A DNA stretch of 64,000 nt, taken from contig JAQTUZ010000003.1 of the NCBI GenBank assembly GCA_028707065.1, positions 2,501 to 66,500 on the forward strand, read 5' to 3'. Each line of letters starts with the position of its first letter. Within the stretch, counting starts at the first letter, position 1. This document shows, in pieces, positions 43,367-45,403 of the stretch. The position numbers and the translations under genes are program-made. The DNA is from Patescibacteria group bacterium (GTDB lineage: Bacteria; Patescibacteriota; Patescibacteriia; Patescibacteriales; WJLG01). The notes below the pieces were generated by a model. It ran no database searches, had not been told where the DNA came from, and saw only the letters and a list, made by a program, of their open reading frames with translations.

Positions 43367-45403
43367 ATGACCAATAAAGAACTGGAAAAGAAGAAAAAAG
43401 AATCGACTTATGACGCGAGCTCCATCACGGTTTTGGAGGGCTTGGAACCGGTCAGAAAACGGCCGGGAATGTATATCGGATCGACTTCGGCGGCCGGCTT
43501 GCATCATTTGATCTGGGAAGTAGTCGACAACAGTATCGATGAAGCGATGGCGGGATTTGCCAACTATATCACCGTCTCTCTTTTGTCTGACGGCATGGTA
43601 GAAGTTATCGATAACGGGCGCGGCATTCCGGTGGGAAAACATAAAGCCACCGGCGTTTCGGCTTTGGAAACGGTGTTAACTAAATTGCACGCGGGCGGAA
43701 AATTCGGCGACAGCGGCTATAAAGTTTCCACTGGTTTGCATGGCGTCGGCGTCTCCGTGGTTAATGCCTTGAGCGAATACATGAAAGCGGAAGTTCACGT
43801 CGACGGTAAAGCCTGGGTCCAGGAATATCGCATGGGCAAGCCAAAGGCGGCGGCCAAGCCAGTCGGCAAAGCGGTCGGTACCGGTACCATCATCATTTTT
43901 AAACCGGACGCGACGATCTTTACCGAATTGGAATTTGATTGGGAAAAAGTGCTTACTCGGTTGCGCCAACAAGCTTATTTGACCAAAGGCATTACTTTTG
44001 AAGTCAACGATAAACGCGTTAAAGGACAGGAAAAAAAATATAAATTTCATTTTGAAGGCGGAGTGCTTGCTTATATCAAGGCCCTAAACCGAAATAATAC
44101 CGTTAAGCATGAAAATATTTTTTACGTAGACAAGGAAATTGAAGGTTCCCGAGTGGAAATCGCTTTACAATACAATGATGAATTTAATGAATTGGTTTTA
44201 CCTTTCGCCAATAATGTCCATAACCCCGAAGGCGGCACGCACGTCATCGGTTTTAAGACTGCCTTGACCAGAACGCTTAACGCTTATGCCCGCAATCACA
44301 ATTTAATCAAAGAAAAAGATGAGAATCTTACCGGCGACGATGTCCGGGAAGGTTTGACCGCAATCATCAGCGTTAAATTGAAGGATCCGCAATTCGAAGG
44401 ACAAACCAAAGCGAAATTGGGCAACGCCGAGATTAAGACCGCTGTGGAACAAGTTTTTGGCACGGCCTTTGCGGATTTTCTTGAAGAGCATCCTAAAGAC
44501 GCTGAAGCGATCATCGGCAAATGCGTTTTGTCGGCCATGGCTCGCCTGGCCGCCCGTACGGCCCGCGCTTCCATTCTGCGTAAAGGCGCTCTGGAGGGTA
44601 TGACCTTGCCGGGAAAATTAGCCGATTGCTCCAGCAACAGCCCGGAAGAATGCGAATTATATATTGTCGAGGGCGACTCGGCCGGCGGCTCGGCCAAACA
44701 AGGCCGTGATCGGCGTTTCCAGGCCATTCTCCCTTTGCGCGGCAAGATCTTGAATGTTGAACGCGCCCGCTTGGACAAAATGCTTGCTAACAATGAAATT
44801 AAAAACTTGGTCATCGCACTCGGCACAAATATTGACGAGCAATTCGACTTAACCAAATTGCGCTATCATCGCATCATTATCATGACCGATGCTGATGTCG
44901 ATGGCGCTCATATCCGGACCTTGCTTTTGACTTTATTCTATCGCCATTTCGAACCGTTGGTTACCAACGGCCATCTTTATATCGCCCAGCCGCCATTGTA
45001 TCAGGTTAAAAAGGGCGCGCAGATCGAATATGCTTATTCGGATGAGGAAAAAATAAATATTATTAAAAAATTGGGCGGCAAAGTCGAGGAGATCGAAGAA
45101 ATCATGGAGGGTGCGGATGAAACCGAGGATTCCGCCTCTGCTTCGCCGGGCGAAGCTACGGCGGACAATGCAAAAAAAGCAGCGAATTTGCGCATCCAGA
45201 GATATAAGGGTTTGGGTGAAATGAATCCGGAACAGCTTTGGGAAACGACTATGGACCCGGCCCGGCGCATCCTCAAACAAGTCTCGCTTGATGATGCCGA
45301 AGCCGCGGACGAAATTTTCGATATGCTGATGGGCGACGACGTGGCGCCGCGCAAACATTTTATCCAGACGCACGCCAAGAAAGTGAAGAACCTCGATATT
45401 TAG
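43367..45403 (+). CDS. gyrB: DNA gyrase subunit B
   Basis: [47 protein letters not shown], the Toprim block EGDSAGG, and [10 protein letters not shown]. Confidence 0.97.

Follow-up and report, generated by a model that had tools for sequence, protein, structure and literature searches.

We analysed a stretch of 64,000 nucleotides of the contig JAQTUZ010000003.1 from a Patescibacteria group bacterium, referred to below as the window, in which two genes, gyrB and pgk, share a short, hairpin-forming, in-frame DNA module. A segment of gyrB and the core of an insert within pgk are probably two copies of one non-autonomous dispersed element, about 30 nt long, with the consensus TCCGCCTTCGCCGAGGCTACGGCGGACAAG. 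The element exists as a discrete family; its pgk copy is a lineage-specific nested insertion, located in a loop predicted to be disordered, and in its gyrB copy compensatory changes preserve a hairpin although the encoded peptide varies.

The initial annotation, made on the window alone, had noticed two 12-mers common to the gyrB module and pgk, TTCCGCCTCTGC and TACGGCGGACAA. This is confirmed: each is found exactly twice in the 64 kb, once in gyrB and once in pgk, and the pair keeps the same order and codon phase in both genes (TCC GCC TCT GC. and ACG GCG GAC AA.). The two sites are 6.5 kb apart, in inverted orientation. Since strict-gap local alignment of the window segments returned one 12-mer only, with a score of 24, gap-tolerant scoring was used instead. 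It gave a score of 37, which a single one out of 5000 dinucleotide shuffles attained, and the similarity therefore holds against the shuffled controls that had been proposed as a check.

A longer match was obtained with the pgk 30-mer, which is identical to the gyrB module of a relative, L002 (TCCGCCTCCGCCGAGGCTACGGCGGACAAT), at 26 of 30 bases, ungapped and in the same frame. In a blastn-short search of 1.27 Mb this match, located at the orthologous gyrB position, has an E value of 0.004; with the peptides SASAKVTADK and SASAEATADN kept fixed, the exact probability of finding at least 26 identities is 7.7e-4, under window codon usage. The earlier claim that unrelated essential genes have in common a repeat-derived, in-frame module at the nucleotide level can be upheld. 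The window gyrB copy, once 9 nt (TTCGCCGGG) are subtracted from it, likewise matches pgk at 26 of 30 bases. The modules feature 63-68% GC, as opposed to 43-48% in the host genes, and are free of stop codons in 4-5 of the 6 frames. When the pgk insert was compared with all tiles of the window, the best non-self scores were those of the MetRS insert at 10551-10700 (37.5), of gyrB (37) and of 9101-9200 on the minus strand (36), followed by 13301-13400 (32) and, again on the minus strand, 8801-8900 (30.5); a score of 36.5 marks the 99.9th percentile of tiles.

The history of the pgk copy can be read from its orthologs. At the insert, the coding strand encodes TASASAKVTADKSAGK. Codon alignment places a 60-nt insertion between GAA CCC and GGG AAA AAA, and this insertion is absent from three syntenic orthologs, L001, L002 and L004, as well as from about 30 of the closest Pgk homologs, which are 383-384 aa long. 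At this same site one relative (P0256, locus L088) carries ten inserted residues, LRTASAGKTG, the corresponding DNA being AGCCTTCGCACGGCT directly followed by TCGGCGGGCAAGACT. The window gene has the L088 insert sequence plus 30 added bases, TCCGCCTCTGCCAAGGTTACGGCGGACAAG, placed exactly at the junction of these two parts. Because L088 has the outer 30 nt only, the stretch that pgk has in common with gyrB measures 30 nt and is nested in an older insertion of equal length. As a correction to the initial annotation, the shared module is this nested element, and not the whole pgk insert. The insert also holds the quasi-repeats GCTTCCGCCTCTGCCAAG, GTTACGGCGGACAAG and TCGGCGGGCAAG, quasi-tandem units of 12-15 nt.

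In an AlphaFold model of Pgk, built from a 56-sequence alignment, the mean predicted local distance difference test (pLDDT) score is 91.3, and residues 68-84 are the sole segment below 50; the insert is accordingly predicted to form a disordered loop, just past the HLGEP motif. This motif, at residues 60-64 (51700-51715), is found in the clade as either HLGEP or HLGDP, in place of the canonical HLGRP, the arginine of which presumably contacts 3-phosphoglycerate; the insertion begins one residue later.

In gyrB, the sequence at 45130-45171, ttccgcctctgcttcgccgggcgaagctacggcggacaatgc, encodes a 16-residue segment directly ahead of a 10-residue stretch. It falls within the linker that separates PPLY from RYKGLGEM, which is acidic, of low complexity and 53-79 aa long in 119 Patescibacteria GyrB homologs; since the linker is long in these homologs, its 30 extra residues with respect to other bacteria are old. 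The module is 65% GC, against 48% for the whole gene. Among GyrBs of the close clade (83-93% identity) this segment of the linker varies both in sequence and in length. The module-type segment consists of 16 residues in the window, 14 in P0006 (L002) and 13 in P0007, and reads SSFASSDEATEDKDNK in P0002 (L003), PASAPEDGASTGKGNK in P0005 (L004) and SSYAEASEDKSAS in P0019, while most other close GyrBs feature shorter acidic alleles, such as LSAEEADDDKSKK.

The DNA of the window gyrB module is predicted to fold into a two-tier hairpin (-14.1 kcal/mol, z -3.45), with an outer stem TCCGCC/GGCGGA, an inner stem GCTTCGC/GCGAAGC, tct and tac between the two tiers, and cgg as the terminal loop. This copy corresponds to the short form of the element plus the 9 nt mentioned above, which are an inverted copy of the adjoining GGCGAAGC and produce the inner hairpin. 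The ortholog from L003 has the same two-tier fold, with TCCTCC/GGAGGA and GCTTCGT/ACGAAGC as stems. Over the four module-bearing gyrB orthologs, 93.6% of the cells pair and double-sided changes are found at 4 of the 13 pairs, a level of covariation which a single shuffle out of 500 equalled and which no slid control attained, and the peptides encoded by the four differ from each other. As the palindrome is kept while the peptide changes, a constraint or a mutational process must act on the nucleic acid, and not on the protein.

The family consensus has a 6-bp stem, TCCGCC/GGCGGA, a 14-nt loop and a CAAG tail. IMG/VR was scanned for the core, GCTACGGCGGACAAG, and 119 occurrences of this 15-mer, in 118 stretches, were examined. 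In 17 distinct copies the upstream 15 nt match TCCGCCTTCGCCGAG with no more than 4 mismatches out of 15, the calculated chance rate being about 1e-4 per occurrence. The flanks of these copies share nothing, and the GC content of their contigs ranges from 34 to 70%. The matching core and upstream 15 nt, set within unrelated flanks, define a sharply bounded 30-nt element, TCCGCCTTCGCYRARGCTACGGCGGACAAG. Some copies are in frame within low-complexity protein regions, as ESSYAEATADKQEE in L184 and AASAFAKATADKPAP in L200, others are read in the remaining two frames, and tandem pairs of the element are found in L093 and L159. A looser pattern returned 12 matches, including three new copies, two of which with TCCTCC paired to GGAGGA; the pair is broken in 2 of the 12. 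Altogether, the element was detected in about 20 IMG/VR contigs, and no protein family was found to recur within 4 kb of 24 phage-contig copies. The initial annotation had seen here a repeat family: derivation from a repeat is supported, but the repeat is not a high-copy one of this genome, being rather a low-copy, sharply bounded unit of 30 nt, which occurs both across phyla and in contigs of phages.

Two of these contexts are worth describing. In L136 (198-227) and L164 (4115-4144), which belong to the same IMG/VR contig, the copies sit exactly between units of CAATATT heptamer arrays. In L091 (11620-11730, minus strand) the copy is flanked by an imperfect duplication, about 30 nt long, of a ribosome-binding site and gene start (GGAGG..ATGATYCAYYTRTG); no other copy was seen to have such a duplication at its flanks.

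To obtain a covariance model, 19 copies were used, 17 of which from phage contigs; pgk and L002 gyrB are also members, and the window gyrB copy was not a member. Its top four matches in the window are pgk, gyrB (24.7 bits, E 9e-4) and the two further copies listed in Table 1. Over 1.22 Mb of other loci, the model detected copies in the Opitutaceae genome L007 (47.2 bits), at the 5' end of miaA in L004 (42.5) and in L006 (31.6), along with L002 gyrB (a member), L003 gyrB (28 bits), L088 pgk (21) and the gyrB linker of L016 (19.9). The reading frame of most clear in-gene copies is the one giving a hydrophilic S-A-F/S-A-E/K-A-T-A-D-K peptide, the partial MetRS copy being in another frame. No Rfam family matches the window at gathering thresholds and nothing meaningful was found around one phage-contig copy, which weakly argues that the element does not stem from any known structured RNA. 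In the literature, we found no paper reporting the sequence of the element or its encoded peptides, and none on in-frame repeats in the candidate phyla radiation (CPR)/Patescibacteria.

Related sequence had also been proposed at other positions of the window, and this holds to different degrees. The region 13341-13405 contains a hairpin followed by GCTACGATGGACAAG, and the model match falls within it. At 10620-10640, MetRS shares with the pgk insert an exact 15-mer, GGCGGACAAGTCGGC; this is read QGGQVG in MetRS and TADKSA in Pgk, which favours a relatedness at the DNA rather than at the peptide level. The inverted relatives proposed at 8824-8886 and 9125-9180 do share words of 9-11 nt, but nothing longer, and apparently belong to a different repeat family, so that the link is weak. 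Matches to words of 9-12 nt at 14123, 21122, 33416, 26329, 36311 and 8659 lie in ordinary coding sequence and were attributed to chance; a scan of GC islands for in-gene repeat insertions returned 79 islands and was of no discriminating value.

The region between cvpA and tsaC holds two repeat units (13281-13410), open in the tsaC frame, which the NCBI Prokaryotic Genome Annotation Pipeline (PGAP) includes in TsaC as a 43-residue N-terminal extension (MDD4901824.1, TTG start at 13281). This start is probably over-extended, because the Sua5 domain begins only at residue 65.

Table 1. Copies of the element in the window and the genes and regions that contain them
Feature	Position	Strand	Basis and remarks
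gyrB host gene	43367..45403	+	678 aa; translation, homologs, all four GyrB Pfam domains; identical to NCBI MDD4901857.1
GyrB variable acidic linker, between PPLY and RYKGLGEM	45002..45199	+	66 aa here
gyrB element copy, long form	45131..45169	+	outer stem 45131-45136/45160-45165, inner stem 45140-45146/45150-45156, CAAT tail
pgk host gene	50678..51898	-	403 aa from ATG at 51889; translation, PF00162 homologs; identical to NCBI MDD4901863.1
In-frame pgk insertion, encoding LRTASASAKVTADKSAGKPE	51635..51694	-	60 nt = 20 codons; codon alignment
30-nt element nested in the pgk insertion, TCCGCCTCTGCCAAGGTTACGGCGGACAAG	51653..51682	-	comparison with L088; 45.2 bits, member of the family model
Element-like copy, with a hairpin in its loop	13357..13389	+	within composite repeat 13341-13405, between cvpA and tsaC; model 16.1 bits, E 0.09
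Partial element in the MetRS in-frame repeat insertion	10606..10632	+	other frame (QGGQVG); model 16.3 bits, E 0.08

The order of the genes around the two main copies, gyrB, DUF212, metalloenzyme, iPGM, enolase, pgk and PDZ protein, is kept in relatives.

Several observations weigh against the presence of a dispersed element. When the peptides were fixed and the codons redrawn according to window usage, 573 of 20000 trials (2.9%) attained the score of 37: the direct similarity between the gyrB and pgk segments of the window is genuine in DNA, but modest given the fixed peptides (P ~0.03), and not overwhelming. The module can be aligned with short acidic GyrB alleles, SAEEADDDKSKK among them, and no empty gyrB site is demonstrable. 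On a neighbour-joining tree drawn with the linker masked, module-bearing GyrBs are scattered, as is the module-free state, and for this reason gyrB does not demonstrate one clean insertion. Of the two genes, only pgk shows such an insertion, the gyrB copy lying in a linker that is hypervariable in all Patescibacteria. The covariation concerns four sequences only, one of which served to derive the structure. A pgk insertion containing the nested unit is known from a single metagenome-assembled genome. The copy number is low, with four recognisable copies in 64 kb and nine model hits in the 1.22 Mb of related loci, and a strict pattern for the long form gave three hits only in 185,579 species genomes, so that the long form is not a common repeat. 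Comparison of the pgk junctions with the empty sites showed no target-site duplication, and neither a duplication nor a conserved target is visible in the 17 phage-contig copies. Finally, no transposase or RAYT-like gene was found among about 40 open reading frames (ORFs) of the 64-kb window that were scanned against Pfam.

Some of these facts would also be explained by a one-off exchange, in which a short ectopic gene conversion or a template switch carried the gyrB-linker module to a pgk site, GGCGGCAAAAAG, already similar to it, with no need for a dispersed family. In the clade of the window the core is indeed almost confined to gyrB and pgk, the pgk 30-mer is nearest to a gyrB allele (the 26 of 30 matches reported above), a CGGCGG(G)CAA-like microhomology is already present both in the empty pgk site and in the outer insertion, and the copy number is low. 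The same 30-mer, with the same boundaries, is however found in phage contigs, in the Opitutaceae genome, at the 5' end of L004 miaA and in the intergenic copy at 13357-13389: contexts so unrelated imply that a wider family exists. An isolated exchange is thus an unlikely explanation, and is really one possible mechanism within that of a dispersed element.

It may also be supposed that the element is a functional cis-element selected by the host, such as an mRNA or DNA structure involved in stability, pausing or protein binding, which recurs because it is useful and not because it is mobile. Both the pairing kept by compensatory changes in the gyrB linker of four lineages and the conservation of the primary sequence across phyla would agree with this. 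The positions, on the other hand, differ between genomes, and the module is absent from most close GyrB and Pgk orthologs; the contexts are mixed, including coding regions in three frames, intergenic regions and tandem repeats, and no Rfam match was found. Moreover, templated quasi-palindrome mutation can mimic compensatory evolution without any selection. We regard selection by the host as very unlikely. Convergence, by which flexible linkers rich in Ser, Ala, Thr, Asp and Lys, codon bias and local slippage (the tandem units of pgk, the inverted duplication of gyrB) would have produced a chance likeness in DNA, could draw on the synonymous resamplings, on the quasi-repeats of the pgk insert and on the low complexity of the GyrB linker in every lineage, but is already disfavoured, and is highly improbable, in view of the match to L002 gyrB given the peptides, of the recurrence of the words in MetRS, in another reading frame, and upstream of tsaC, of the peptide-changing double substitutions that preserve the hairpin, and of the identical 30-mer found within AT-rich heptamer arrays and in three frames in phage contigs.

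Judged by its features, the dispersed element has its closest known analogue in the Rickettsia palindromic elements (RPEs), about 105-150 bp long, which are found in frame in housekeeping genes, 44 of them in R. conorii (Ogata et al. 2000, reviewed in PMC10969869, PMC3184786). As with RPEs, a palindromic repeat lies in frame within unrelated housekeeping genes which are left intact, is open in the frame used, and is also found in intergenic copies. The positions appear compatible with the fold in both cases, being here the predicted disordered Pgk loop and the variable acidic gyrB linker. The gyrB, pgk and MetRS ORFs are intact and annotated as full-length by PGAP, the pgk insertion measuring exactly 20 codons. 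RPEs, in contrast, are restricted to a genus, with tens of copies per genome, whereas this element is 30 nt long (39 nt in the long form), has few copies, is rich in GC within a genome that leans towards AT, and keeps its primary sequence across phyla and phage contigs.

Other known repeats resemble the element in part. Repetitive extragenic palindromic (REP) sequences and REPINs are short, GC-rich, imperfect palindromes, mobilised by RAYT (Y1 HUH) transposases, and are extragenic, high-copy and species-specific (PMC3116915). The element is likewise a short GC-rich imperfect palindrome, with neither a target-site duplication nor a gene of its own, but its window copies are mostly located inside annotated ORFs and are few, and no RAYT was found in the window. 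REPs carry a conserved GTAG directly 5' of the hairpin. On the reverse strand, a GTAG directly precedes the inner hairpin in window gyrB, in 13357-13389, in L006 and in L007, a position which falls inside the loop of the only stem of the 30-nt consensus; because of this location in the loop of the short consensus, membership in the REP class is not established. [quoted passage not shown] The element shares with them a non-autonomous nature and the in-frame fusion with host ORFs, but neither terminal repeats nor duplications are seen here, the flanking duplication of L091 being isolated. Cyanobacterial small dispersed repeats (SDRs), described by Elhai and co-workers in Genome Research in 2008, are reportedly hairpins, 21-27 nt long, which show compensatory changes and lie inside other repeats and tandem arrays of heptamers. 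The likeness to these is one of behaviour, the element being a very small hairpin, nested in repeats and heptamer arrays, and present or absent at homologous sites; the taxa are different, and apparently the sequences as well.

The element would then be a non-autonomous dispersed repeat, with sharp ends, unrelated flanks, no recognisable target-site duplication and no linked gene, whose in-gene copies would persist only at places where the protein can bear ten additional residues, as in disordered linkers and surface loops. Its spread may depend on single-strand transposition in trans, guided by the hairpin and of the HUH/Y1 type, as for REP and IS200/IS605, or alternatively on template switching during replication, seeded by microhomology; a possible instance of the latter is the empty pgk site, which reads CCCGGCGGCAAAAAG and is similar to CGGCGGACAAG of the element. 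The features observed fit these two mechanisms equally well. Templated events may later have remodelled the copies locally, giving rise to the 9-nt inverted duplication of gyrB and to the quasi-tandem units of pgk. To the host proteins, the element is most likely of no use.

Short GC-rich hairpin repeats crowd the intergenic space of this genome, and a second GC-rich family also enters a gene. MetRS (9783-11384, plus strand) contains, in frame, about 150 nt of this family (ACACCCCG...GGCACCCCTCnnnnGAGGGGA) at 10513-10662, and one further unit at 11046-11103; the units are three to four, with peptides THPASPGSAPLSRGDF, TPRPSTQGGQVGTPLDRGDL and THPVRPGGVHPSQEGT. MetRS orthologs range from 472 to 539 aa, and in their alignment the basal state (472-480 aa) is empty at both sites, which are insertion hot spots with differing repeat-type peptides (THP..HPSQEGN, KELDSRLRGND, CHCERSEA..ARNDK, SAEATAGEA). 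Intergenic members of the ACACCCCG..CCCCTCnnnnGAGGGG family are located at 5449-5499, 6373-6420, 9048-9093, 13281-13336, 35531-35593 and 11385-11450, in both orientations and often right after stop codons.

Additional repeats were observed elsewhere in the window. Between iPGM and enolase (48636-48781) there are two tandem 73-nt units, 92% identical, each of which contains a hairpin rich in GC, AATAATCCCGCGCCGCGCGGAGATTATT; a related arm is found at 118-151. Further short GC-rich hairpin repeats are located at 224-292/30023-30091, 8824-8886/9125-9180, 8938-8965 and 7470-7500, with the motifs ATGCCGACG..CGTCGGCATCCCGAGCTTGTCTCGGGA, GTTCCG..AGTCTCCGCCTC.., GTCATCCTGAGCGCCGCGCGAAGGATC and CCCCGCATTCGCGGGG. 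Within 15398-15851, inverted repeats of 32 nt, 97% complementary and built from 8-mers of the TTAGTTGA/TTAATTGG type, enclose a gene (PF05635, 15431-15802) for a "23S rRNA intervening sequence protein"; the same arrays are found again at 32621-32733. A low-GC island at 20000-24000 (35%, against 44% for the window) contains two ORFs, 21035-21829 and 22310-23254, for tyrosine recombinases (Phage_integrase), and is possibly an integrated element.

In-frame palindromic repeats are already known in Rickettsia, and tiny hairpin repeats reportedly in cyanobacteria; what is new here is an element of much smaller size than RPEs, with few copies and with a sequence that is conserved across phyla. A broader proposal, which we advance tentatively and with some doubt, is that TCCGCCTTCGCCGAGGCTACGGCGGACAAG is one of the smallest mobile DNA elements, a 30-nt hairpin moved between phyla (Patescibacteria and Verrucomicrobia, in hosts of 34-70% GC), possibly by phages, without target duplication, tolerated in essential genes as a ten-residue disordered peptide and with its stem kept at the nucleic-acid level, which would imply that a conserved trans-acting machinery recognises it. 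Conservation of a 30-nt unit across phyla would point to an undescribed, widely shared mechanism of mobilisation or recognition.

If the dispersed-element explanation is true, hypervariable low-complexity inserts of Patescibacteria, such as those in the GyrB linker, in the Pgk loop and in the connective regions of MetRS, would be scars of small GC-rich hairpin repeats, and not inventions at the protein level. This would account, in genome annotation, for spurious N-terminal extensions and odd peptides, and would matter for phylogenetic marker alignments of gyrB and of aminoacyl-tRNA synthetases. It would also bear on the tolerance of selfish DNA in streamlined genomes.

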